Source: Candidatus Latescibacterota bacterium (GTDB lineage: Bacteria; Latescibacterota; UBA2968; UBA8231). Taken from it: a stretch of 64,000 nucleotides of DNA. Both the position numbers and the translations under genes were made by a program. The stretch covers positions 2,880,001-2,944,000 of the forward strand of contig CBDFJF010000001.1 in assembly GCA_965248265.1 (NCBI GenBank), read 5' to 3'. Shown here piece by piece: positions 32,117 through 50,591 of the stretch; position 1 is the stretch's first letter; each line of letters opens with the position of its first letter. A model generated the notes under the pieces. That model saw only the letters and a list, made by a program, of their open reading frames with translations, was not told where the DNA came from and did not search any database.

Positions 32117-34120
32117 CTACCGCTGCATAAACACGGTCACCCTGTTACCGGTGCCCCCGGCGATCAGGTCGATGATGAGCCAGACGCCGGTGCAGACAAT
32201 CTGGCCCAGGATCAACCCCAGGAAGAACGGCCGCATGGCATTGTAGAGTTTGGCCCCGCCGTACTTGAGTACGATGGCCTTGATGAGGGAGCCAATGAAG
32301 ATGCTGAACCATGCCAGGCTGCTGATGTTGCTGGCGCTCACGGCGAAGCCGAGTGGATGCAGCGGCCACCACAGAAAGTGATGGCGCAGCAGGATCAGCC
32401 CTGCCATGAGGGCTCCGCCTATCGCCGTCCATAGTGCCCGCGGCCAGATGATGTCCGGCGTGGTCGAGAACGAAACCGGGTTGGCGATCTTGTAGCGGGC
32501 GAACTCGAAGGTGCTTTTCGCAGTCCAGGTGAAGAGTGGGCGTTCGAGATTGACCCCTCCGTACTCGTACGCGGCCCAAATGAGGAACACCAGCGAACTC
32601 ACCAGGCTGACGATGATGGCCAGCATGATGACCCAGAACAGGGGTCGCCGCAGTACGCCCACTCCCTGGGCCATTTTCATCGCATTGATGGCTGAGGCCA
32701 TGAGCAGAACGCGGAGGTAACCCGCCCACGTGAAGCTCAGCGCAAGGCTGAACACACCCGCGTGAGTGACCGTCGATGTCCCGGCAAAGTTGACGATGAG
32801 CGGTTGTGCCGGCATCGGCGGCATCATGAAACCCAGTCCGCCCTCGGCAACCAGACGAGCCATGAAGATGAAAATCGCGAAGGCCACCAGCAGGAAGGCG
32901 ACGGTGATGGCCATGGGGAGACCCGACAGGTAGAGCCAAACGGTTGTATAGGCGCCGCACAGTACCAGGATCGCCACCGCTGCCCGGTAGGAGAGGACCT
33001 CCTCGGTGTCGTCCACTCCCTTACCCGTTACCACCTTGCGCCAGACCTCGCGCAGATGGCCGCGGGCCGTCCATACTCCGAAAAGGACGAGAACGAACAT
33101 GGCGCCCGTGGTCATGAAGGCGACCAGGAGGGTGCCCTCCATGTAGCGCTCGATATCACCCTGGAGCCGGTAACCCGTCATCATCTGCCAACCCATGAAA
33201 CACTTGGTCACCAGGTGGAAAAACCAGAAGCCAACGGCGACCTGTAAGCTGAGCAGATAGGCGAAGCCGATGACGGTGAAGCTGAGGTTGAACACCAACC
33301 CGGTAGTTTCGCGAAACAGCAGCGCCACCGAATAGAAGTTCGGTTCTGGTATGACCGGAAAGTACTGGTGCAGCCCTCGGGCGCTGAGCAGGATGAACGG
33401 CACCGCGAAGCCGGCCCACATCACCGGATTCTTCAGAAACGGACTTACCCGGTCGCGGAGCCCCCCGGTATCCGTCATTTCCATCGGCAGCTGTACCAGT
33501 GGAAAGGCCAGACGCTCGTGTTCCACCCATTGACGGCGCACCAGCACCATGGCCGCGATCATCATCAGGTAGATGGCGATAATGAAGCTGATCCAGATGG
33601 ATAGGGGTCCTATCCACGCACCCCAGGGCACGGACCCGCCCGCCGGCAGCCCCTCGTAGAAATCCTTGATGGCACGAGGGTCCTGTGGCACCATCCAGCT
33701 CTTGATGAGCGGATGCAGCACCTCGGCCCAGTTGTTCTCCGGCGTCGCGAAGTAGTAGACCCCCGGCAAGGTGCCGACGAACAGACCCGAGAACCCCCAC
33801 GTCGGAATCGTCGAGGCAATGATGAGCATGATGTAGATGACGACGAGCTCATCACGCGCAAACCCCGAGTCACGACGCACCAGCTTCATGCAAGGATTCA
33901 CCAGCGCCATGAGGACGAAGAGAATGCAGATGGCTCCCGCGGTGATGTAATCGGCAGACATGCTGCCTTTGCCCAGAACCACACGGGTGTATGTGAAACC
34001 GACACTGATGACGAGGGACAGCAAAACCCCGGCGACCACCGAGCGGATGGTGATACGCCCGAACAGGCCGGAGCCAGCGGCGCTTTCTGTCGTGTGAGAA
34101 ACTTCGGCAGGTGGATTCAA
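32117..34120 (-). CDS. DUF6785/DUF6784-like polytopic membrane protein, paralog 2
   Basis: Many TM helices; YFATPEN, RRQWVEHERLAFPLVQLP, WWPLHPLG, RPFFLGLILG; start uncertain (TTG at 34120). Confidence 0.8.
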   Translation of the reverse strand: MNPPAEVSHTTESAAGSGLFGRITIRSVVAGVLLSLVISVGFTYTRVVLGKGSMSADYITAGAICILFVLMALVNPCMKLVRRDSGFARDELVVIYIMLIIASTIPTWGFSGLFVGTLPGVYYFATPENNWAEVLHPLIKSWMVPQDPRAIKDFYEGLPAGGSVPWGAWIGPLSIWISFIIAIYLMMIAAMVLVRRQWVEHERLAFPLVQLPMEMTDTGGLRDRVSPFLKNPVMWAGFAVPFILLSARGLHQYFPVIPEPNFYSVALLFRETTGLVFNLSFTVIGFAYLLSLQVAVGFWFFHLVTKCFMGWQMMTGYRLQGDIERYMEGTLLVAFMTTGAMFVLVLFGVWTARGHLREVWRKVVTGKGVDDTEEVLSYRAAVAILVLCGAYTTVWLYLSGLPMAITVAFLLVAFAIFIFMARLVAEGGLGFMMPPMPAQPLIVNFAGTSTVTHAGVFSLALSFTWAGYLRVLLMASAINAMKMAQGVGVLRRPLFWVIMLAIIVSLVSSLVFLIWAAYEYGGVNLERPLFTWTAKSTFEFARYKIANPVSFSTTPDIIWPRALWTAIGGALMAGLILLRHHFLWWPLHPLGFAVSASNISSLAWFSIFIGSLIKAIVLKYGGAKLYNAMRPFFLGLILGQIVCTGVWLIIDLIAGGTGNRVTVFMQR

Positions 34121-34127
34121 GAGCGGC

Positions 34128-36152
34128 TCAGTAGCGATAATGGAACACGGGCACGCGGCTGCCGGTGCCACCGGCAAACAAATCCAGGATCATCCAGAAG
34201 CCGGCGCAGGTAATCTGCCCAAGAATCATGCCCAGGAAGAATGGCCGCAACGCCAGGTACAACCGAACCCCTCCGTACTTGAGCAGGGAGGCTTTGATCA
34301 TCGAGCCGAGAAAGATGCTGAACCAGGCTCTGGACGTCACGTTGCTCGCACTCACGGCGAAGCCGAGCGGATGCAGCGGCCACCATAAGAAGTGGTGACG
34401 CAGATAGATCAAAACGCCCATCACCATGCCGCCGATGCTCGTCCACAGCGCCCTCGGCCACATGATGTCGGGAGTACCCGAGAACGACAGGGGGTTCTCT
34501 ATCTTGTAGGCGGCGAAGTCGACGGTGTTGCGGGCGTTGTTGGTGAAGAACCAGGGCTCTAGATTGGCAGCTCCCTCCTGGTAACAGAGCCAGATGATGA
34601 TCCCCAGAGAGCTTACCAGGCTCACCAGCATGGCCACGATCATGACCCAGAACAGGGGCCGTTTCAGAATGCCGACTCCCTGAGCCATCTTCATCCCGTT
34701 GATGGCCGAGGCCATGAGCATGATCCGGACGCTGCCGGCCCAGCTGAAACTGAGAGCCATGCTAAAAATTCCAGCGTCAGTGACTGTAGTCGTTCCGGCG
34801 AAGTTCATGACAATCGTCTGAGCCGACATCTGCGGCTGCATGAAGCCGATCCCACCTTCGGCGACCAGGCGCGCCATGAAGATGAAAATGGCGAAGGCGA
34901 CGATGAAGAACAGGAGGGTGATGATGATGGGGACACCACTCATGTTCAGCCAGATCGTTACATAGATCCCGCAGACGACGAGAATGGCGGCCGCAGCACG
35001 GTAGGAGAGGATCTCCTCACTGTCGTCGACACCGGTCCCGGTAATGACCTTTCGCCAGATCGCTTTGAGGTGGCTGCGGCTGACCCAGGCCCCGAACGCC
35101 ACCAGCACCAGCATGGCCCCCATGCCCTGGTATGCCAGCATGAGGGTCCCTTCCATGAAGCGCTCGATCTCACCCTGGAGGCGGTAGCCGATCAGGTACT
35201 GCCAGCTCATCTGCGCCTTGGCCAGCAGGTGAAAGAACCAGAAGCTGGAGGCCACGTGCAGGCTGAGCAGGTAGGCCAGACCGATCACGGTGAAACTGAG
35301 ATTGATCTCGACGCTCGCCTGCTGGCGGAACAGCTTCGCTCTCGCGTAGAGCTCGGGGTCCGGTACAACAGGGAAGTACTGGTGCAAACCCTTCATGCTC
35401 AGCACGCAAAAAGCCAGCGCGAAGCCCGTCCACATCACCGGGTTTTTGAAGAACGGACCCAGGACCTGGTTGGCCCTGCCGGTCTCGGCCATTTCCAGGG
35501 GCAGCTGAACCAGGGGGAATGCCAGGCGCTCGTGCTCCACCCATTGGCGCCGGATCAGAACCATGCAGGCGATCATCATCAGGTAGATGGCGATGATGAA
35601 GGTACCCCAGGCCAGCATCGGTACCGCCCATGCTACCCACGGTACCGAGCCGCCCACCGGCAACCCCTCGAAGAAGCTCTTGATCGCCTCCTCGTCCTGC
35701 GGCACCATCCATGGCTTGATCAGAGGATAAAGGATGTCCACCCATCTGTTTTCCGGCGACGCGAAGTAATAGACGGCCGGCAGCATGGGGATCAGGTTGG
35801 CCGAGAACCCCCACGTCGGAATCGTCGAGGCGATGATGAGCATGATGTAGATGACGGCCAGCTCGGCGCGGTCGAAGGCCCAGCTCTGGCGGACCAGCCG
35901 CGTGCAGGGATTGAGCAGCACCGTGACGCCGAAGAACACGAATATGGCCCCGGCCGTGATGAAGTCGGAGTTCATGCCGGTCGTTAAGAAAACCACGCGG
36001 GTGTAGGTGAAACCGACGCTGACGATCAGACTCAGCAACGCGCCGGTGATCACCGAGCGGATGGTGATGTGACCGTGCTGAGTACCGGAGGAGCCTGGCG
36101 ATGGAGCAGGTGACGGTGTGGGTGTTGGTGAAGTTGGGGAAGGAGGAGGCAT
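34128..36152 (-). CDS. DUF6785/DUF6784-like polytopic membrane protein, paralog 1
   Basis: Same motifs (RRQWVEHERLAFPLVQLP, WWPLHPLG, RPFFLGMILG); Pro/Ser/Thr-rich N-terminus. Confidence 0.8.
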   Translation of the reverse strand: MPPPSPTSPTPTPSPAPSPGSSGTQHGHITIRSVITGALLSLIVSVGFTYTRVVFLTTGMNSDFITAGAIFVFFGVTVLLNPCTRLVRQSWAFDRAELAVIYIMLIIASTIPTWGFSANLIPMLPAVYYFASPENRWVDILYPLIKPWMVPQDEEAIKSFFEGLPVGGSVPWVAWAVPMLAWGTFIIAIYLMMIACMVLIRRQWVEHERLAFPLVQLPLEMAETGRANQVLGPFFKNPVMWTGFALAFCVLSMKGLHQYFPVVPDPELYARAKLFRQQASVEINLSFTVIGLAYLLSLHVASSFWFFHLLAKAQMSWQYLIGYRLQGEIERFMEGTLMLAYQGMGAMLVLVAFGAWVSRSHLKAIWRKVITGTGVDDSEEILSYRAAAAILVVCGIYVTIWLNMSGVPIIITLLFFIVAFAIFIFMARLVAEGGIGFMQPQMSAQTIVMNFAGTTTVTDAGIFSMALSFSWAGSVRIMLMASAINGMKMAQGVGILKRPLFWVMIVAMLVSLVSSLGIIIWLCYQEGAANLEPWFFTNNARNTVDFAAYKIENPLSFSGTPDIMWPRALWTSIGGMVMGVLIYLRHHFLWWPLHPLGFAVSASNVTSRAWFSIFLGSMIKASLLKYGGVRLYLALRPFFLGMILGQITCAGFWMILDLFAGGTGSRVPVFHYRY

Positions 36153-37758: not shown

Positions 37759-40071
37759 TCACTCTTCGCCGCTCTGTCCGCCGGCGAAGAAACTCGCTGC
37801 ATCCTGTGTAGTCCGAAACGCCTTCCGGAATGCCCGGGTTTCGTCCAGCAGGACGAGAAGCTTGTCGACGGCAGCGGACGCATCAACCACAGCACACCGC
37901 TCGAACAGGATCTCTCCAACCGCATCGCGCGTCGCCCGTACCCCCATCGCCGGCAGCACCTCCAACCCGGCGACCACCGTGCGCTCGCTGTGCGCCATGG
38001 CGCCGGCCAGTTTCTGCAGGGAGCTGCGACCTTGGTATTCAGCTAGCGTGTATTTCACCAGGCCACCCAACCGCTGCGTAAATGCCTCGTAAGAATCGAC
38101 GCCTTGATCCTTCGCGAACACGTAGATCTCTTCTGGCTTCACCCGCTCCAACACCATAGCGACCTCTCCCCGGCCCGGCGGGGCGCTCCAGACTACCAGT
38201 GTGCTACCTGTCGTCAACTCCGCTCGCGGCTTCGCCCTTTCGTGCTCAACTGCTTCACCCCAGATCTGCGGGTCTGCGGTTTCAGCAATAATCTCATCCA
38301 GCTTCTCGAGCGGGGCTGACTCCGCTCTGAAATCGTAGACAACGGCCTTTGTCCCCGCACTCTCCCCACCTTCCGCTCTTCCCGACCGCTCAAAGTCCTG
38401 CAAGGTGATCGACAGCGTCTGTTTCCCGCGGAAGAAACCGGGTCGCACGCGCACGACCATGTCCAAGCGTCCGTTTGGCAGGGCTTCATCGGCGCTGCTC
38501 CACCACAGGACCTCGCACTTGTGTCCGGCAAGGTCGCTGACGACCAGTTTTCGATGGGCCTTGTCCTTGCCGATCGGCCGGTCCTCTTCTACTTGCAGGC
38601 CAGGGCAGAGGATGTTGACGGGGGGATTCCCGGGGCCGAACGGCGCCAGCGCTTCCAACTGCAGGGCGGTGTCGAGGGTCAGCTCCTCCAGCGGCAGCTC
38701 GAGCTCGATGTCGACGGTCGGCTCCGGCGTTCGGCCCGTGCGCTGATCGATGAGGGCTTTTGACACACCGCGTCGGAACGCCTCGACGTTCCCCGCATCC
38801 AGCGATAACCCGGCTGCCATCGGATGGCCCCCGAAGCCCATCAGGATGTCGGATTGAGTCGCGATAGCTCGAGTGATGTGATAGCCCTCGACCGAGCGCG
38901 CCGATCCGCGTGCCGGTTTACCCTCCGGCGTCGTCAGCATGATCGTTGGTTTGCCGAACTCCTCCACCAGGCGACTGGCGACGATGCCGATGACACCCTC
39001 GTGCCACAGCGGATTGGCCAACACAAGAGCAGCGTACTGCCGCAGAGAAGGCTCCTGCTGCACCTGCGCCGCGGCCGAATCGTAGACGACGGAGGTCTCG
39101 AACTTGCGCTCTTCATTCAGACGCTCGAGCTGGTCGGCGATCTCCTTTGCCTGCGCTTCGTCCGTCGTCGTCAGCAGCGGTACCGAGACGTTGGCATCCG
39201 ACAACCGGCCGACCGCGTTGAGCCTCGGGCCAATCTGGAAACCGATGTCCTCGTCGTTGAGCAGATCCATTTTGACTCCGGCGTTGTCGGCCAGAGCCAG
39301 AAAACCGGGTCGCTCCGTCGAACGCAACACCTCCAGGCCGCGCTGCAGCAGGTAGCGGGTATCCCGTCGTTGGAGTGCCAGGTCTGCGACGATGCCGACC
39401 GCCACCAGGTCCAGGCAGCTCTCCAGCTCAACCGCGCGTCCGGCGCGCGTGAACAGCGCTTCGATGATCTTGTAAGCCACGCCTACGCCGGGAAGACCAC
39501 TCAATGGGTCATCTTCGGCATGGAACTTCGGATTGATCAGGGCGAAAGCCTTGGGCAACTCGTCAGGCAGGTCATGGTGGTCCGTTATTACGACATCGAT
39601 GCCGGCCTCGTGGGCAAAGGCGACGCTATCGACGGCGGCAATCCCGGTATCGCATGTGACCAGCAGGTCGAAACCCTTTTCGATGTAGCGCTGCAGGACC
39701 TGCGGCTGCACACCGTGCGACTCGTGCTGGCGGACCGGAATGTGGTAGGAAACATTACCCCCAATCCGCTCCAGCATGGAAACAAGCAATGACGTCGACG
39801 TCTGCCCGTCGACATCGAAATCACCCCAGACCAGAATGCGCTCGTTGTTGCGGATCGCCCGTTCGATCCGTTCGACACCGATCACCAGGTCGTGCAAGGT
39901 CTCTGGAGCGGCAGGGGTGTAGGCATCCGGATCCAGAAACGGCCGCACCTGTTCGGGGTCATCCATGCCGCGACCGGCCAGGACCTGCGCCACCAGTGGC
40001 CGGCCCGAAGTCGCATCGAGCAAAGACTGCGAGACCTCGGCGGCCCGGATGGGATTCCACTTGAGGTTCAT
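37759..40071 (-). CDS. recJ: Single-stranded-DNA exonuclease RecJ with C-terminal extension
   Basis: WGDFDVDG, TCDTG, TDHH, GIVAD, GPRLNAVGR, GSARS, FGGHPMAAG, LAPFGPGNP. Confidence 0.95.
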   Translation of the reverse strand: MNLKWNPIRAAEVSQSLLDATSGRPLVAQVLAGRGMDDPEQVRPFLDPDAYTPAAPETLHDLVIGVERIERAIRNNERILVWGDFDVDGQTSTSLLVSMLERIGGNVSYHIPVRQHESHGVQPQVLQRYIEKGFDLLVTCDTGIAAVDSVAFAHEAGIDVVITDHHDLPDELPKAFALINPKFHAEDDPLSGLPGVGVAYKIIEALFTRAGRAVELESCLDLVAVGIVADLALQRRDTRYLLQRGLEVLRSTERPGFLALADNAGVKMDLLNDEDIGFQIGPRLNAVGRLSDANVSVPLLTTTDEAQAKEIADQLERLNEERKFETSVVYDSAAAQVQQEPSLRQYAALVLANPLWHEGVIGIVASRLVEEFGKPTIMLTTPEGKPARGSARSVEGYHITRAIATQSDILMGFGGHPMAAGLSLDAGNVEAFRRGVSKALIDQRTGRTPEPTVDIELELPLEELTLDTALQLEALAPFGPGNPPVNILCPGLQVEEDRPIGKDKAHRKLVVSDLAGHKCEVLWWSSADEALPNGRLDMVVRVRPGFFRGKQTLSITLQDFERSGRAEGGESAGTKAVVYDFRAESAPLEKLDEIIAETADPQIWGEAVEHERAKPRAELTTGSTLVVWSAPPGRGEVAMVLERVKPEEIYVFAKDQGVDSYEAFTQRLGGLVKYTLAEYQGRSSLQKLAGAMAHSERTVVAGLEVLPAMGVRATRDAVGEILFERCAVVDASAAVDKLLVLLDETRAFRKAFRTTQDAASFFAGGQSGEE

Positions 40072-40101
40072 GAGGGGTGGATGCGCTTCAGGTGAGGGTG
40101 C

Positions 40102-40938
40102 TCAAAACGCGATCGCTTCGTAGTCATCGAGATCCCCCAACTGCGAAGGCGCTTCCTCTTCGCTTTCGAGATCACCGTCGTCCAGGTACCCCGCCACACC
40201 CCCTCGGTCACAGAAGGAGCGGTACACGCAGAACATGCACTTCTTCTCATCCGTCGTGAGCCCGAACGAGCCCCGCTCGCGACTCAGGATCTCGTCGACC
40301 AGGCCACCCAGGTAGGCCTCGTCCTGGCCATACTGCTCCTCATTGTAGGCAAAGACCTCCGGATCATCCGGAAAATCCGAGTACCAGTAGACCATCTCGA
40401 TTTCGTCCGGCGTCAGCGGCTTGCCATCGGCGAGTGCTGCTCCCGCCTGAAGCAACAGGTAGGGATAGATCCGCGTCTGCAGTCGATCCGTCAGCCATTC
40501 TCTAGTGTGTCTGCGACGCCAGGTCTTCCAGTCAAAGATGCGGGCGCGGCGCATGTCTTCTGCATCACCATTGCCGATGACGATCAGATCACACGTCGCC
40601 ACTAGCGTGCTGACGCCGATGGTCCCAACCAGCGTCTTCTCGGCGAACCGCTCTCCATCGACATCAGCCGGCCGCTGCACCATATAACTGTTCCACCAGC
40701 GCGAGATATCGGCATCCTTGGCGGAATCAGGCACCGGCACCGAAATGCCCAACACGTCACGGTGAACCATTTCGTGGAAGCGGCGACCATCGACCATGTG
40801 GCGCTCGCTCTGCAGCAGCGGCTCGCTTTCCACCGCCGGCCACTTGAGCTCTTCGAGGTAGCTCAGTTCATAGCGGCGGGCGCAGTCGACGTAGGCCTGC
40901 AGGCTGTGGGCGCTGAAGGAGAGTTGTTTATCCGTCAC
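40102..40938 (-). CDS. Stand-alone PD-(D/E)XK nuclease (AddB/Cas4-like, 1+3 Cys Fe-S motif)
   Basis: FSAHSLQAYVDCARRY, G..FH, CDLI, IFDWKT, QTRIY, CMFCVYRSFC; acidic tail; GTG start at 40938 preferred. Confidence 0.88.
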   Translation of the reverse strand: MTDKQLSFSAHSLQAYVDCARRYELSYLEELKWPAVESEPLLQSERHMVDGRRFHEMVHRDVLGISVPVPDSAKDADISRWWNSYMVQRPADVDGERFAEKTLVGTIGVSTLVATCDLIVIGNGDAEDMRRARIFDWKTWRRRHTREWLTDRLQTRIYPYLLLQAGAALADGKPLTPDEIEMVYWYSDFPDDPEVFAYNEEQYGQDEAYLGGLVDEILSRERGSFGLTTDEKKCMFCVYRSFCDRGGVAGYLDDGDLESEEEAPSQLGDLDDYEAIAF

Positions 40939-43207
40939 TATCACGTGCCCCCCCCATCGAATCCCGCAGCGCCACAAAAGCGAGCGCCGGCTTGTTGCTC
41001 CCGCGGGGCCCGACATTGCTCGTCACCATCAGCTCCTTGCGCGCCCGCGTGATCCCTACGTAGAGCAACCGCAACCGCTCGCGTGCATAGTCATACCGCG
41101 CCTCCATTGTCGCCGAGCCCTCCAGGTACTCCGTACCATCTATGGCTGCATCGAGCTGGCCCAGGGTTTCGTCTGCCAGACTGAGATTATCCCTCACGAA
41201 CCAGCGCTCCGACCGGAAGCTGTCCGTCGGCTCGCCCGCGGGGAATTCATAGTCACTCACTGCCAGCAGGTAGACGCGGTCCCACTCCAGGCCCTTGGCC
41301 CCATGCATGGTCGCCACCACCACTTCGCCCTTGTGGGCCTCCGGCTCGAAGCCGGTCTTGTCGGTCTCGATCGAGCGCAGTTTGCGCTGGTCGCGGGCGA
41401 TGACGACGAGCTCGGCCTCCATCTCCGCCAGCGTCGTCGGCCGGCCTTCGACACCCAGGTTGTACTGCGAGCGCTCCTGCAGGATTTCCCCGAACAGCTG
41501 CGTCATCGCCAGCTTCTCCGGCTCGTCGAACAGATCCTGAGCGATCGCCGTGAGCAGCTCCCCGATCGGCAGCAGCACCAGGGCGTGCCAGCGCTGCAGC
41601 TGCTCGCGGAAGCGCTCGAAGTAGGACATCGTGCTCGCCGGAATCTCGCCCGTGCCCAGACCAGCACTCGATCCTTCTTCCCCTCCAGCCAGCGGCCAGA
41701 CGAACTCCTCGCTACGGACGCATCGCTGCAACAGCGTCAGATGTATTTCCAGCAGTTCCAGCCCCTCGTCCGATTCGGCTTCCTTCAACACCCGCGTGAA
41801 CCAGACCTTGTACACGGCGACCAGAGTCCGGTGGGCATCCGGATGCGCCAGGTGCTTGAGAATCAGGCTGAGAGCACCGGCCGCTTCCCGCGTCGACGTC
41901 GTCAGGCGCAACATCGCATCCGTACACGGCACCCGTGCCTTGCGCAGGATTTTGATCACTTCGGCCCCGCGCGCGTTCGTCGGCACCAGGATGGCGACGG
42001 TTGCGTCCCCATTGGCCGGCAGCCATTTCTTGATCGATTCCACGACCCGGACCAGCTCCGCCTCCGGTGATTCGTCGTTGAAATGGAAGGCCACTCTGCA
42101 GGCATCCTCCGGAGGATTGGGTTGCGGATCGCCCGGCGGCGTCGGTTCGATGTTGGGCAAGGAGAGCGCGCTGCGCATTGCTTCGACGGGGTGATCCTCA
42201 CTCGCCCAGCGGATCAGCTCGTTGGCCATGCCGATGATGGGCAACCCCGAGCGTCCTGAATTGGGTAGATCGTGCTTGGCGTCGGCTTCTTCCAGAAAGG
42301 CGCGCAGGTACTTCGGGTGCGCGGTGGTGAAGGTCTCGTAGATCGCCTGGTTGGGATCGCCAACGCGGACCCAGTTGCCGCCCTCGCCCACCAACCGGCG
42401 CAGAATCTGCTCCTGCAGGGCGCTGCTGTCCTGGGCTTCGTCTTCGAGAATGAAGGGCCAGCGCTGGCGCAGGTTCTCGACCAGGGTCTCATCAGCGTCG
42501 AGGGCGCGAATCGCCATCGTGATCAGGTCGTTGAAGTCGAGGGATGCCCGCGTTGCCAGACCGTGCTCGTAGCGCTCGTACACATCCACCGCCAGCTTGA
42601 TCAGCATGGAACTGTCATCCGTGAGCCGATCGCGTACGGCCTGCGGCGTCTGCTGGCGGCTCTTGAGGTGCGCGATGGCGTTGCCGACGACCTGTTGCAG
42701 CAGTGCGGGCAGATCGTCGGTGACAATCTTGCGCCGCCGGAAATCGTTCATGTCTTCAATCAGGTAGCGCGCCAGACCCTCTTTGTATCGCGGGTAGGAA
42801 GCGCGAAACGCCGTGCGCAGAATCGAGTCGGCGATACGCTCGTCGACGACGGAGAAGTTGGTCTCCAGTCCTACAATCGACGGCGACTGCGACACGATCT
42901 CGTGCGCCAGGCTGTGCAGGGTGCGCACCCGGTAACCCAGACCGGGGAGCAGACCCTGCTCGGAGAGAAACCCACCAATGCGCTGGCGGAAGTTGTCGAC
43001 GGCCGAATTGACCAGCGTCACGATCAGGACTTCCTGCCGGCCCTGCAGCGCCCCACTGGAGATCAGGGATACAGCGACCTGCGACAGGGTCCAGGTTTTA
43101 CCGCTGCCCGGCACCGCGGCGATGCCCATGGTGCCGCCGGCGTAGCCGAGGATGGCTTGCTGGGCGGGGCGCAGCTGGGTTGGGGAATGAGGCGAGGGTG
43201 ATGTCAC
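40928..43207 (-). CDS. UvrD/PcrA-like SF1A ATP-dependent DNA helicase without fused nuclease
   Basis: AVPGSGKT, RTLHSLA, EDEAQD, VGDPNQAIY, TMHGAKGLEWD, RLLYVGITRAR. Confidence 0.92.
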   Translation of the reverse strand: MTSPSPHSPTQLRPAQQAILGYAGGTMGIAAVPGSGKTWTLSQVAVSLISSGALQGRQEVLIVTLVNSAVDNFRQRIGGFLSEQGLLPGLGYRVRTLHSLAHEIVSQSPSIVGLETNFSVVDERIADSILRTAFRASYPRYKEGLARYLIEDMNDFRRRKIVTDDLPALLQQVVGNAIAHLKSRQQTPQAVRDRLTDDSSMLIKLAVDVYERYEHGLATRASLDFNDLITMAIRALDADETLVENLRQRWPFILEDEAQDSSALQEQILRRLVGEGGNWVRVGDPNQAIYETFTTAHPKYLRAFLEEADAKHDLPNSGRSGLPIIGMANELIRWASEDHPVEAMRSALSLPNIEPTPPGDPQPNPPEDACRVAFHFNDESPEAELVRVVESIKKWLPANGDATVAILVPTNARGAEVIKILRKARVPCTDAMLRLTTSTREAAGALSLILKHLAHPDAHRTLVAVYKVWFTRVLKEAESDEGLELLEIHLTLLQRCVRSEEFVWPLAGGEEGSSAGLGTGEIPASTMSYFERFREQLQRWHALVLLPIGELLTAIAQDLFDEPEKLAMTQLFGEILQERSQYNLGVEGRPTTLAEMEAELVVIARDQRKLRSIETDKTGFEPEAHKGEVVVATMHGAKGLEWDRVYLLAVSDYEFPAGEPTDSFRSERWFVRDNLSLADETLGQLDAAIDGTEYLEGSATMEARYDYARERLRLLYVGITRARKELMVTSNVGPRGSNKPALAFVALRDSMGGARDSDG

Positions 43208-43282
43208 AGAGCCAGTTGCTTCCTGATCAACTGACAGAGGCTATCCTTGATCTCGTTGTGCCTTGGAACCGAGGCACGGCGA
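43204..43282 (-). pseudogene. hicA: HicA toxin C-terminal remnant
   Basis: RRASVPRHNEIKDSLCQLIRKQLAL* directly after the hicB stop; N-terminus and catalytic His region missing; its stop overlaps the helicase GTG (GTGA). Confidence 0.8.
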
Positions 43283-43492
43283 TTACAGTTCCAGAGACAC
43301 CGATTTTGTGCTGACCGAGACGATGTCAGGTGGTGTATCTTCATCGGCCAACACGAGCCGGTAGGAATTCTGGATGTTCTGTTCGAGCTCATCCAGCGTC
43401 TCTCCCTGGCTGAAAACACCCGGCACTTCCTTCAACCGCCCGATGTACCAATCATCCTCAATCCAGTACTCAAGCGTAAACTGCCGTGACAT
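43283..43492 (-). CDS. hicB: HicB family antitoxin (short form)
   Basis: FTLEYW, WYIGRLKEVPGVFSQGETLDELEQNI. Confidence 0.9.
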   Translation of the reverse strand: MSRQFTLEYWIEDDWYIGRLKEVPGVFSQGETLDELEQNIQNSYRLVLADEDTPPDIVSVSTKSVSLEL

Positions 43493-43497
43493 GAGAC

Positions 43498-43770
43498 TCA
43501 GCTTAGTCGCTCGTTGGCTGCGGTGGACGCAGCGACAGTCGGCCGGCTTTCCAGGTAAAGTGTGTCATAGCTCAAATCAACTCCGCTTGGCCATTCCACT
43601 GAACCGGCCACGACCCTTGCCGCCTGGAAGCTCGCCTCGTTCTGCAGACGGACGAAGACTCCTCGGTTGAGATAAGGCGTCAAGTCGAATATCCGTTGTT
43701 CGCCGTTTTCGAAGACTAGCTCCAGCTGGTAATCGTTCAGCGGGTGTACGAGTCTCACGTGTGGATTCAC
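43498..43770 (-). CDS. DUF2442 domain protein (predicted antitoxin)
   Basis: VHPLNDYQLELVFENGEQRIFDLTPYL, SVEWPSGVDLSYDTLY. Confidence 0.88.
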   Translation of the reverse strand: MNPHVRLVHPLNDYQLELVFENGEQRIFDLTPYLNRGVFVRLQNEASFQAARVVAGSVEWPSGVDLSYDTLYLESRPTVAASTAANERLS

Positions 43771-43838
43771 AGGTGCTGCCTGTCATCAAAAAAATACATC
43801 CTGATCACAATACCATAAAACGTCGACAGAATCGGCAT
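43767..43838 (-). pseudogene. DUF4160 (predicted toxin) N-terminal remnant
   Basis: Manual translation MPILSTFYGIVIRMYFFDDRQHL*, the DUF4160 N-terminus ending before the PHFH motif; keeps the GTGA overlap with DUF2442. Confidence 0.8.
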
Positions 43839-43851
43839 TGGTACTTGCCAC

Positions 43852-43929
43852 TCAATGTACGGCTGTGAATGGGCAGATGCTAAGCGGTCTCACCCCGGCA
43901 CCCGGACAAAAATCAACGAGTGTGTTCAT
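43852..43929 (-). pseudogene. PIN/VapC toxin 5' remnant
   Basis: MNTLVD overlaps the antitoxin end (...ALSDEHTR*) in vapB/vapC fashion, then diverges and stops after 25 codons. Confidence 0.6.
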
Positions 43930-44176
43930 CCGACAGCGCCTCGCCCAAGTGCCAGTCATGTTCGACAGCGCCAGAGGTGTCCAGACTCTCACCGAGGCCG
44001 ACGATGGACATGAAGACGTCCCTGGTGAATTGCTGCTGCTCGGTGTCACCAGCCAGATAGTCGGCGACAAGCCCGCGCACCAACTCAGCCATCGAGACAT
44101 TCTTCCTGCCTGCCGCGAGTTTGAGCCTGCGATGGTCGGCGGGATCGAGATAGATCTGCAGTCGCACATAGCCCAT
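43913..44176 (-). CDS. Ribbon-helix-helix antitoxin, VapB-like
   Basis: MGYVRLQIYLD...LKLAAGRKNVSMAELVRGLV, SIVGLGES, EHDWHL; ATG at 44176. Confidence 0.82.
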   Translation of the reverse strand: MGYVRLQIYLDPADHRRLKLAAGRKNVSMAELVRGLVADYLAGDTEQQQFTRDVFMSIVGLGESLDTSGAVEHDWHLGEALSDEHTR

Positions 44177-44186
44177 GGCGCATCTC

Positions 44187-44462
44187 CTACCCGTACCGCT
44201 CCACGTACAGATCCAGCACACGCCGCACCATCTGCTGATAGGGCATCCCGTGCTTTGATGAGTTGCGCTTGAAGAACTCGACGCTTCGCTGGCTCAGATT
44301 GAGCGTCACCTTCACGGTTTCTTCCTTCAAGAAGAGTTGCTCCGGCGGCGGGAGGAAATCCTCAACAGTTTCCGCTTCGTCGATTGCTCTGGCGATTTCG
44401 AGGGGAGCTGCTACGTATTTCGCTCGCGCCTCACGTACTCGAGTCGTCTTTTTGGCCATCAT
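44187..44462 (-). CDS. brnA: BrnA/CopG-type antitoxin
   Basis: DFLPPPEQL, TVKVTLNLS, GMPYQQMVRRVLDLY. Confidence 0.82.
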   Translation of the reverse strand: MMAKKTTRVREARAKYVAAPLEIARAIDEAETVEDFLPPPEQLFLKEETVKVTLNLSQRSVEFFKRNSSKHGMPYQQMVRRVLDLYVERYG

Positions 44463-44718
44463 ACCTTCTCCTTCCTTCGCGCCAGTACCCGGCCCCGAAA
44501 ATCCTGATCCGATTTGCCCGCATCGTGAAACGGACCGTCAGCACCCTTTCATCCACCAGACCGAAACAGAAGTACCGAGACTCCTTTGCAGTCGAGTGCT
44601 TGCGATCTCTGGCAATTACCCGGGCGGGATCTAGAAATGCTCGTTGTGCCTCTGCGAAGGACACACCATGCTTGCGCACGTTTTCCGCATCCTTCTGGTC
44701 GTCCCATTCGAAGTCCAT
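44431..44718 (-). CDS. brnT: BrnT family toxin (intact)
   Basis: FEWDDQKDAENVRKHGVSF, ESRYFCFG, VRFTMR, IRIFGAGYWR. Confidence 0.92.
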   Translation of the reverse strand: MDFEWDDQKDAENVRKHGVSFAEAQRAFLDPARVIARDRKHSTAKESRYFCFGLVDERVLTVRFTMRANRIRIFGAGYWREGRRRYDGQKDDSST

Positions 44719-44721
44719 GCC

Positions 44722-44749
44722 GTATGTATATGTGGATGTCTATACATAC
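44722..44749 (-). promoter_or_regulatory. AT-rich inverted repeat, probable BrnTA operator
   Basis: GTATGTATA (44722-44730)-N10-TATACATAC (44741-44749), 3 bp from the brnT start. Confidence 0.65.
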
Positions 44750-44765
44750 AAATATACAGAGACGA

Positions 44766-44800
44766 GTAGGGACGGCAAGCCCGCCGCGCGTCATCCCCAC
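44766..44800. repeat. REP-like imperfect palindrome at the boundary of the TA string
   Basis: GTAGGGACG...CGTCATCCCCAC (GTAG-headed stem). Confidence 0.35.
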
Positions 44801-44802
44801 GG

Positions 44803-46923
44803 TCACACTTCATACACCCCCTCAGCCTCCGGCACCACCCCCAACCCCCGCAACGCATGCCCAAGCGCCACCAGCAGATCCCCCGTCTGCTCCTGCCCAT
44901 GCGCGCTGAGTTCGCTATTAAACAGGTACACCGAGTCCGTGCAGCGCCTCACCAACCCCGAAACCATGCACGTAAGCCTCTCCGTCTCGAACTTCGCCTC
45001 CCAGGCCGATGACCATTCCTCCTCCTGGGTGTTCCAGTCACGGCTGAGCACGTAGGGGTTGGTCAGGGGTTGATGGATGCGCCGGTGCCAGGCCGGCGAT
45101 CCCACATCCAGCCACAGCTGATGGGCGTAGGTGCGATTGCGCAGCAGGAAGGTGTGCGCCGGCGCGATCAGGACTGAAGTCGATGGATCCGCCCAGTTCA
45201 TCGAGTAGAACGCGGAGACGACGCCCTCCTGCACCATCTCGACGTAGGCTTTGCCGACGGCTTCACCCTCGTCCCCCGAGGCCTCGGCCACGGCGCGCCG
45301 GAATTTCTGCGCCGATTCGACCAGACTGGCCACCTGCATGCCGGCCGGCACGTCCTTGTGGAACCCGAAGCCGGGCTGGCTCAGCACCTCGCCGAACAAG
45401 CGGCTGAAGAACAGGTCGACGGGCAGATCCTCCTCGCTCTGATATTCCTCCAGCCAGGATCGCAGGACCTCGTAGCTCTCTCCCACGCGATAGGTGATTC
45501 GGTCGCGCGCTTGTGACGCTATTTCTTCGAATGACTTCAAACCGACTGCTTCATGCACTCCCTCGTACGCGACGGAGGCCAGCAGCGCCGCGCGCACCAG
45601 GTCCGCCGCACCAAGGAGCCGGTCGAACATGTGGGTGACCGCCTCCGGCGACGGCCGTTCCAGCCGCCATGACGGGTGCGCGAGCGCGGCCAGGGTCAGC
45701 AGCACCTTGGTGACCGGCTCGTCCCGCAGGGTCCGCGAGGGACGATGCACGTAATGGCTGATCTGCGCCGTGTCGAGACGCGTCGACAGGCCATAGTAGA
45801 GACTGTCGTTGAGGAACGGAGAGATGATGGCGATCTGAGCCGGCTCAATGCCGTTCTCGATCAGCTGCTCGACCTGACCCGTGACCCGCTGCACCATCTG
45901 GTGATGCAGCCGGTCGGAGAACACCTGCACGCGCCGCTTGTCGTCATTGTCAACATCACTGACTGCCCCGGCATCCGGTCGATCGCCAATCGCATCGCAC
46001 AACCTGCGCCCGAATACCTGCAGCGACTCCGGTACCGTTGCTGTCGATTCGATCAACTGACTGGCCGCGCACTCCTGCTTCAGCGTGTAGGCACTCAATG
46101 GATTGGCCGCGAGGAATTTTCGGAAGCCGGCATCACAGTCGTAGAGGATGAGGACGGATTCCAGTCGAGAATCGTCGTGGTTCATCCACAGGCGCACGAT
46201 GTCATGCGCCAGCGGAATGTCCTCCTCGCAATTGTCGTAGACGAGATGACGGTGCTGTCCGAACAGGTAATCGCGCAACGGCTGCGAGTGCCGGACCAGA
46301 TCCCAGAACAGGGTCAAATACAGCGAGAAGTCGAGCAGGTTGCCCTGCGCGCACAGTTGCCGGTAGGCCGCCACGGTGTTCGAGATCTCCTCGACGTGAC
46401 CGTCCGAAAGCTCGGTGCCGATCCTTGCTGAGCGCAGATAATCGCTCAACGCATCCAGGGGGATATAGTTGACGGCCGCCTTGTTGAGATTGTCCAGCAG
46501 CTGCGAGTAGAGCCGGTGCCGCGTCAGCTTCAGGTCGGCGAAGTACCCCTGTTCTATTAGAGGGGACACCAGCCGCGCCATGAAGTACTGGGCCACTTCG
46601 TAGGTCAGGAAGGTCGGCTCCTGTCCCTGCACGAAAGGATACTTCGACTGCGCCAGCACCTCCGGCCAGAACAGGGAGACATAGCGACGTGCCAGGCCTC
46701 CGATCGTCGCTTTGCCGAGGCCGTACCACGAGCGCTGATCGAAGGCTTCTTCGTAGGCGAGGGTGTAGCTGCGGTGGGGGGTGAGGAGGAGGATCCGGTC
46801 GGGCGCGACGCCATCGTCGATGAGGGAGCGGATGCGCTCGATGGCCTGCGTGGTTTTGCCGGCGCCGGCGGGGCCTTCGAGGAAGAGGGTCGGTTGGGTA
46901 TCGGGAGTCACCGCGGCCCACAT
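44803..46923 (-). CDS. Degenerate UvrD-like P-loop protein (AddB/AdnA-like partner subunit)
   Basis: Walker A GPAGAGKTT; GVAPDRILLL; LLDFSL; Walker B altered to VYDNCEED; QIAIISP; no nuclease domain. Confidence 0.75.
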   Translation of the reverse strand: MWAAVTPDTQPTLFLEGPAGAGKTTQAIERIRSLIDDGVAPDRILLLTPHRSYTLAYEEAFDQRSWYGLGKATIGGLARRYVSLFWPEVLAQSKYPFVQGQEPTFLTYEVAQYFMARLVSPLIEQGYFADLKLTRHRLYSQLLDNLNKAAVNYIPLDALSDYLRSARIGTELSDGHVEEISNTVAAYRQLCAQGNLLDFSLYLTLFWDLVRHSQPLRDYLFGQHRHLVYDNCEEDIPLAHDIVRLWMNHDDSRLESVLILYDCDAGFRKFLAANPLSAYTLKQECAASQLIESTATVPESLQVFGRRLCDAIGDRPDAGAVSDVDNDDKRRVQVFSDRLHHQMVQRVTGQVEQLIENGIEPAQIAIISPFLNDSLYYGLSTRLDTAQISHYVHRPSRTLRDEPVTKVLLTLAALAHPSWRLERPSPEAVTHMFDRLLGAADLVRAALLASVAYEGVHEAVGLKSFEEIASQARDRITYRVGESYEVLRSWLEEYQSEEDLPVDLFFSRLFGEVLSQPGFGFHKDVPAGMQVASLVESAQKFRRAVAEASGDEGEAVGKAYVEMVQEGVVSAFYSMNWADPSTSVLIAPAHTFLLRNRTYAHQLWLDVGSPAWHRRIHQPLTNPYVLSRDWNTQEEEWSSAWEAKFETERLTCMVSGLVRRCTDSVYLFNSELSAHGQEQTGDLLVALGHALRGLGVVPEAEGVYEV

Positions 46924-49235: not shown

Positions 49236-50467
<1,232 letters not shown>

Positions 50468-50591
50468 GACTCCAATCCTCTCAAGAAATGGAGCCTCCGG
50501 CACAACGTATATACGTTTTCCCCTCCGAATCATGACTCAGATCAAAAAAGAATCTATGATCCCCGCATGCCTCCGAAACTCCTCGATCTCC

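Follow-up and report, generated by a model that had tools for sequence, protein, structure and literature searches.

The window analysed here, a stretch of 64,000 nucleotides from a Candidatus Latescibacterota bacterium (assembly GCA_965248265.1, contig CBDFJF010000001.1, positions 2,880,001 to 2,944,000), encodes four genes, termed g1 to g4, for a catalytically degenerate UvrD-fold protein, an active-looking superfamily 1A (SF1A) helicase, an iron-sulfur (Fe-S) nuclease and a RecJ paralogue. With moderate confidence we read them as a split helicase-nuclease of the AddAB/AdnAB kind that acts on double-stranded DNA ends and is made of four separate polypeptides. The genes are located as follows (window coordinates):

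g1: 44803-46923, minus strand, 706 aa; catalytically degenerate UvrD-fold subunit
g2: 40928-43207, minus strand, 759 aa; active-looking SF1A helicase of the UvrD/PcrA type without nuclease domain
g3: 40102-41016 (longest open reading frame), minus strand, 304 aa; stand-alone PD-(D/E)XK nuclease of the Cas4/AddB type
g4: 37759-40071, minus strand, 770 aa; paralogue of the 5'-3' single-stranded DNA exonuclease RecJ with a C-terminal extension

An earlier reading of the sequence (below: the original prediction) had described four co-oriented genes at this place, and all of them were found there. Gene identities, order and strand stood; the contiguity of the cluster did not, as five small genes inserted between g1 and g2 had been overlooked. 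The catalytic motifs are all retained in g2, g3 and g4.

The g1 protein gives only a weak N-terminal match to PF00580 in Pfam (27 bits) and matches no NCBIfam family. Its Walker A motif reads GPAGAGKT, and residues 230-235 read DNCEED, so that motif II has D230-N231 where g2 has D-E. Alignment with the g2 family by hhalign (Prob 95.6, E 1.2e-8, 653 columns) showed that the two proteins are homologous along their whole length and that the nearly invariant N231 of g1 pairs with the catalytic E257 of g2. In the same alignment the Walker A Lys, the motif II Asp and the motif VI Arg are retained in g1, whereas no residue of g1 corresponds to the Gln of motif III or the Arg of motif IV. Sequence and hhalign thus agree with the earlier description of a UvrD-like protein with an intact Walker A and an altered Walker B motif. 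Lacking the catalytic Glu and the two lost residues, g1 shares the overall fold of the active UvrD/PcrA/Rep helicases and not their catalytic set. Judged from its motifs, this is the pattern of a subunit that binds nucleotide without hydrolysing it, and nucleotide binding is probably retained.

The structure model of g1 (predicted local distance difference test, pLDDT, 90.7; predicted template modelling score 0.88) shows a complete four-subdomain UvrD fold. It superposes on UvrD, PcrA and Rep with Z scores of 28-29 over 440-569 aligned residues, on AdnB with Z 24.8 over 618 residues (root mean square deviation 4.1) and on AddB with Z 22.3 over 617 residues (model 11-706 on AddB 2-716). The lack of such a fold in the degenerate subunit had been named as a ground for giving up the original prediction; since g1 models as a complete UvrD fold of the UvrD/AddB/AdnB kind, this ground falls away. 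An alignment of 66 relatives of g1 has a mean column identity of 49% and about 70 invariant columns, and the invariant motifs specific to the family are LFWP (84-87), FGEVLSQPGFGF (510-521) and QPLTNPY (618-624).

A model of the complex suggests what these motifs do. Full-length g1 was combined with residues 25-304 of g3, both supplied as alignments, and the interaction prediction score from aligned errors (ipSAE) was 0.80, 0.80 and 0.81 in three runs, compared with 0.00 for the best of three controls. The pLDDT of the partner was 81, and at least 75% of the contacts agreed between runs. In the calibration of the tool, 58 of 80 solved complexes attained its mark, as did 2 of 110 mismatched pairs; these counts are only roughly valid for g1 and g3 because our own alignments were used. 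The contacts with low predicted error lie on g1 at residues 83-88 and 510-517/528-536 and on g3 at 57-62 (an invariant WPA), 82-94 and 266-275 (beside the Cys triad). Residues 83-88 and 510-517 of g1 and 57-62 and 266-275 of g3 are invariant motifs of their respective families. Because the interface maps there, the nuclease is predicted to be held by the very motifs that distinguish g1 from ordinary UvrD proteins. The model supports binding, and g3 is predicted to dock on g1. The original prediction had proposed complex modelling and had viewed the nuclease as a separate subunit; the latter view is supported by an Fe-S PD-(D/E)XK protein that is encoded apart and is predicted to bind g1.

The g3 protein matches PDDEXK_1 (PF12705) with 69.7 bits against a cut-off of 22 and belongs to no NCBIfam family. 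C45, E126, D143, W163, K164, Q180, Y184, C260, C263 and C269 are invariant in 38 of 38 orthologues. The nuclease motifs (D143, K164, Q180, Y184) together with the 1+3 arrangement of cysteines place g3 among the PD-(D/E)XK nucleases of the Cas4/AddB type, in line with the overlapping stand-alone nuclease described before. At its junction with g2 a run of eight G residues (40948-40955, minus strand) is followed by two GTG codons, and from the sequence the true start of g3 is likely the GTG at 40938 or 40944, which gives an overlap of 11-17 nt with the g2 stop. The G8 run still belongs to the last part of g2 and lies shortly ahead of the g3 start; were its length to change by one base, the two reading frames would be fused. 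A search for longer relatives of g3 returned a single 936-aa protein (P0121), in which UvrD domains are joined to the g3 start (87% identity, 13% of g3 covered). As a genuine g2-g3 fusion it is a weak candidate and may be a homopolymer frameshift, given the G8 run at the junction. A 1097-aa open frame in genome G061 that likewise resembled a g2-g3 fusion was set aside as overlapping open frames in high-GC DNA. The C-terminus of g3 (window 40102-40200), compared in the 38 orthologues, consists of an acidic linker and a conserved terminal motif with the consensus DFxQIxEIEF. This tail recalls the acidic C-terminal tip of SSB, which recruits partners such as RecJ; the terminal motif is not among the low-error contacts in the model of g1 with g3.

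For g2, Pfam reports UvrD-helicase (PF00580, 147 bits) and UvrD_C (PF13361, 66.6 bits) and no nuclease domain. Motifs I (GSGKT), II (DEAQD), III (GDPNQ), IV (SGRS), V (HxAKGLE) and VI (GxTRA) are invariant in 29 orthologues, and the closest sequence in the PDB is UvrD1 (9dci, E 4.5e-22). With motifs I-VI intact and both domains present, g2 is a member of the UvrD/PcrA/Rep group of SF1A helicases. Pfam and the orthologue alignment therefore agree on a helicase with intact motifs and no nuclease tail, as had been stated.

The g4 protein scores 494.8 bits against the recJ model TIGR00644 (cut-off 396.9) and contains the DHH, DHHA1 and RecJ_OB domains, which identifies it as a bacterial RecJ. The DHH motifs are invariant in an alignment of 21 RecJ proteins of the cluster and the canonical RecJ of the genome. 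About 190 residues follow the OB domain, so the C-terminal extension noticed earlier is real. It was modelled with a pLDDT of 91.7 as an alpha/beta domain plus a winged helix, and the structure closest to it is that of the C-terminal part of Staphylococcus aureus RecJ (chain 561-756; Z 8.5, 171 residues aligned; Foldseek E 1.4e-5). By sequence, too, the PDB entry closest to g4 is this protein (8Y30, 306 bits), a long-form RecJ of the Bacillota with an extension of the same fold. Because the S. aureus C-terminus is similar, the extension characterises the long form of RecJ and is not confined to this cluster. The long form of S. aureus is a single housekeeping copy, whereas g4 is an extra paralogue linked to helicase-nuclease genes. 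Four of four genomes checked (that of the window and three Anaerolineae) encode two RecJ proteins, a canonical one of about 570-610 aa and, as an additional copy, that of the cluster; in the genome of the window the canonical gene lies elsewhere and lacks the extension. The cluster RecJ is a dedicated second paralogue.

In the machine that we propose, g2 would provide the only active motor, an SF1A helicase of 3'-5' polarity. The role of g1 would be that of a scaffold and strand guide and possibly of a sequence sensor, as the analogy with AddB and RecC suggests. The nuclease g3 would dock on g1 through the motifs peculiar to the g1 family and cut one of the unwound strands, and g4 would digest the 5' strand. 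Such a machine would leave a resected end whose 3' tail is available to RecA; if no stop signal intervened, it would degrade linear DNA. Contacts between g1 and g2 and contacts made by RecJ, the strand polarity of cutting and any Chi-like control would be further parts of this scheme, as would its role in the cell.

Relatives of g1 were collected by scanning one genome per species; 577 were found, and 80 loci were kept for the analysis of synteny. These loci are mostly from Anaerolineae, and the nearest are labelled Latescibacterota, Gemmatimonadota and Rhodothermales. On the same strand as g1, g2 is present at 56 of the 64 loci with at least 3 kb of downstream sequence, g3 at 38 of 56 loci (at least 6 kb) and g4 at 24 of 44 loci (at least 9.9 kb). 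The linkage of g1 to g2 is far above chance. Among the 44 loci with full flanks, 25 carry g2, g3 and g4, six g2 and g3, nine only g2 and four none of them; in one of the 25 complete loci g4 is on the opposite strand. The order g1-g2-g3-g4 is conserved across phyla, and intergenic gaps are mostly below 100 bp or the genes overlap. No fifth recurring gene was detected when three reference loci were used. The neighbourhood survey that the original prediction had suggested thus finds the four genes syntenic across phyla.

The g1 family comprises 622 representative clusters (50% identity, E <= 1e-30), and nearly all of the best 150 of these 622 representatives are stand-alone proteins of about 700 aa. 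Named members include Caldilineae, Acidimicrobiales and a metagenome-assembled genome of the Clostridiales. Carriers make up 44 of 81 sampled Anaerolineae and 25 of 29 genomes of the window's own family. A complete four-gene set is located on pSR56, a 56.5-kb plasmid of Salinibacter ruber M8, where the genes are annotated as hypothetical protein, ATP-dependent helicase, PD-(D/E)XK nuclease family protein and RecJ. In an unrooted g1 tree (FastTree) the window groups with sequences labelled Latescibacterota and Gemmatimonadota and one labelled Rhodothermales, opposite 73 sequences from Chloroflexota. The g1 of pSR56 falls on the Chloroflexota side, and the two Rhodothermales copies are thus on opposite sides of the tree. 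One distant relative (L098) is encoded on pILYOP01 of Ilyobacter polytropus at 902741-904714; this g1-like protein with a UvrD-helicase domain (19% identity, E 5e-20) is solitary, and the other three module genes are not beside it.

The genome of the window is 92% complete in two contigs. It contains no match to recC, none to the AddB models TIGR02773 and TIGR02786 at E <= 0.001 and none to AddA, defined here and below by TIGR02784 at E <= 1e-30. Only two PDDEXK_1 domains are encoded, one in g3 and one in a 788-aa protein. This protein was rejected as another candidate for end processing, being a DinG-type fusion, and a 922-aa UvrD-like protein was rejected as helicase IV-like. The former, a DinG/XPD-type helicase with an N-terminal PD-(D/E)XK domain, is encoded at about 3099326-3101692 (minus strand) of contig C1 of this genome; such proteins are reportedly described as 'EndoDinG' in a paper from 2026 (PMC13650095), to judge by its title. 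Apart from g1 and g2, the UvrD-like genes of the genome are a canonical UvrD/PcrA, the helicase IV-like protein and two weak matches. Because no enzyme of the AddAB, RecBCD or AdnAB type was found in this genome, the module is likely its main end-processing enzyme.

Architecture, synteny, fold and the predicted contact of g1 with g3 support in part a four-component resection machine as it had been proposed. Several observations weigh against it. The anti-correlation with AddAB that had been expected fails: AddA-like genes are present in 19 of 44 carriers among the Anaerolineae and in 16 of 26 carriers of the own family. Counting both genes in 81 Anaerolineae gave 19 genomes with g1 and AddA, 25 with g1 only, five with AddA only and 32 with neither; the corresponding numbers for 30 genomes of the own family, including that of the window, are 16, 10, 1 and 3. 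The positive association between g1 and AddA is probably inflated by genome completeness. One carrier (G090) has an unmistakable AddA-like/AddB-like pair alongside the module. These counts rule out a general replacement of AddAB, and because it co-occurs with AddA-like genes the module is not simply a substitute for it. The distribution is moreover patchy, with no strong g1 match in 71 genomes from the 12 other families of the phylum, 44 of which have AddA-like genes. RecJ is the gene with the loosest linkage, and at 19 of the 44 full-flank loci no copy lies within 10 kb; unrelated genes separate g1 from g2 in 16 of 66 loci. Strict co-transcription is therefore not required. On pSR56 the module adjoins a type I restriction-modification system, a second methyltransferase/GIY-YIG/helicase group, BrnTA, ParA and dinB, and this position beside restriction-modification genes is as compatible with an accessory or defence role as with repair. 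Finally, part of the g1-g3 score may reflect likeness to AddB, because AddB has been solved with similar parts fused.

Some of these observations lead to a second explanation, which we regard as possible and clearly less probable than a machine for DNA ends in general: the same four proteins would chiefly restrict foreign DNA (plasmids, transforming DNA and phage ends) as an accessory, horizontally moving module of the defence type, possibly feeding or cooperating with other systems. The two roles may be compatible, since RecBCD performs both repair and the destruction of foreign DNA. The complete module beside the restriction-modification genes of pSR56, the patchy phyletic pattern with two Rhodothermales copies on opposite sides of the g1 tree and the coexistence with AddAB-like genes in many carriers all speak for this explanation. 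A lead from the literature is a random barcode transposon sequencing screen in Synechococcus elongatus, in which loss of a Cas4-like nuclease, of a UvrD paralogue or of the RecJ paralogue RecJcy each raised transfer or maintenance of RSF1010 and natural transformation (PMC10653904), and a Cyanobacteriota cluster is among the g1 look-alikes in the ESM Atlas (score 0.99). The S. elongatus genes are, however, likened to the module by activity only, and their clustering is not stated in the available text of that study. In addition, the prevalence in the own family and in the Anaerolineae is high for a defence system, the neighbours in the window are metabolic genes, and no copy was found in the phage records and viral contigs searched. 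PADLOC returned only generic GajB models for g2 (131.5 bits), as it would for any UvrD, and no match for g3 or g4; GajA is absent among the four proteins scanned, which are not a Gabija system. A repair role is favoured by the high prevalence in two lineages, the ordinary neighbours, the lack of specific matches in the defence library and the absence of another helicase-nuclease from the searches of the own genome.

The weakest explanation, improbable in our view, is that of independent housekeeping neighbours (with a UvrD paralogue, a Cas4-like nuclease and an additional RecJ each acting on its own at stalled forks or gaps, and g1 as a decayed duplicate) that share no complex: it would account for the unrelated insertions tolerated between members and for the frequent distance of RecJ, and UvrD and RecJ of Deinococcus reportedly cooperate without a stable complex, but g1 does not show the pattern of a decaying duplicate, being strongly constrained and about 700 aa long. 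The invariant motifs peculiar to its family coincide with the predicted g3 interface, and the genes follow one another in the same order in different phyla and on a plasmid.

The spacer between g1 and g2 in the window is 1.6 kb long (43207-44803) and contains five small co-oriented genes of the toxin-antitoxin type, all recognised by Pfam matches:

BrnT: 44431-44718, minus strand
BrnA/CopG antitoxin: 44187-44462, minus strand
ribbon-helix-helix protein: 43913-44221, minus strand
DUF2442 protein: 43498-43770, minus strand
UPF0150/HicB-like gene: 43283-43492, minus strand

In the closest relative (L004) these genes are absent and g1 and g2 are only 6 bp apart; the five genes are therefore a lineage-specific insertion. 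They are inserted cargo outside the module. A BrnT/BrnA pair is also present on pSR56, elsewhere on the plasmid. At other loci the genes found between g1 and g2, in the same orientation, include those for a GT87 protein, a flavin oxidoreductase, an M14 peptidase, a fusion of a major facilitator superfamily protein with spermine synthase and a hydrolase; loci with such unrelated inserts are L016, L024, L037, L040, L041, L052, L059, L064, L083 and others. The nearest closed relative (G078) has about 8 kb between g2 and g3. Further features of the window are a tandem pair of paralogues, both about 680 aa long and composed of DUF6785 plus DUF6784 (32117-36152, minus strand), and an IS3-family element at 49236-50533 (minus strand) with two open reading frames, HTH_Tnp_1 followed by an rve integrase. 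An ALIL frameshifting pseudoknot (RF01497, 101 bits) is located at the junction of these two frames (50073-50189).

Recombinational repair begins with the resection of DNA ends, by enzymes that also destroy linear DNA entering the cell. To our knowledge, only three bacterial helicase-nuclease designs have been characterised. A split design would allow the roles of motor, sensor and nuclease to be separated experimentally, and entry points are offered by the plasmid copy in a cultured Salinibacter strain and by the possible link to a cyanobacterial plasmid-restriction phenotype. A characterised example of the four-gene family was not found in the literature searched, which left most subscription journals outside, and nothing useful was found there on pSR56 or on the S. 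aureus RecJ structure.

Among the known systems, AddAB of the Bacillus subtilis type (3U4Q, 4CEJ) combines an active SF1A motor with an inactive UvrD-fold subunit that keeps its Walker A motif, as here. Its 1+3 Cys Fe-S PD-(D/E)XK nuclease is tied to the inactive subunit, just as g3 is predicted to bind g1. In AddAB both nucleases are fused, whereas g2 lacks any nuclease, the Fe-S nuclease of the module has its own gene and a dedicated RecJ is linked. An AddA joins an SF1A helicase to a C-terminal RecB-type nuclease, while g2 consists of UvrD-helicase and UvrD_C only and reaches 65-75 bits with the NCBIfam AddA models, compared with cut-offs of 708-861 (addA_alphas 74.8 versus 860.75). An AddB joins an inactive helicase to an Fe-S nuclease, while g1 and g3 are separate with g2 between them, and neither of them matches the curated AddB models (TIGR02773, TIGR02786). 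In AdnAB each subunit carries a fused nuclease, and the helicase motifs are kept in both. The mycobacterial enzyme (6PPR, 9NP6) is a heterodimer of UvrD-like subunits, and g1 superposes on AdnB; AdnAB joins C-terminal nucleases to both of its UvrD-like motors, whereas the module has no nuclease domain on g1 or g2, and one of these two subunits is without the catalytic Glu.

Two unfused systems come close by description. Operons of a separate UvrD and a pfam12705 Cas4-like nuclease were reported in a non-defence context, mostly in Clostridiales, and a role in repair was suggested by the authors (PMC5704561, Hudaiberdiev et al. 2017). Helicase and nuclease stand side by side there as g2 and g3 do, and the g1 family, too, has a representative from the Clostridiales; the available text mentions neither a degenerate second helicase nor RecJ. 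The S. elongatus trio has, by its description, the same activities as the module, namely those of a Cas4-like nuclease, of a UvrD paralogue that accompanies PcrA and of a RecJ paralogue present in addition to the canonical RecJ, and many cyanobacteria are described as having two recJ genes (PMC5101192, as far as its text was available). The accessible part of the S. elongatus study mentions no g1-like partner and reads the phenotype through Argonaute (PMC10653904). Tentatively, and with more doubt than we attach to the split machine itself, the module might form a fourth architectural class beside RecBCD, AddAB and AdnAB, in which two UvrD-fold subunits (one live, the other dead), a separable Fe-S nuclease held by the dead subunit and an own RecJ move together between phyla and onto plasmids; it might then also be the cyanobacterial Cas4-like/UvrD/RecJcy activity that limits plasmids and transformation, with the dead helicase as a sensor that distinguishes self from foreign sequence in the way Chi does for RecBCD.

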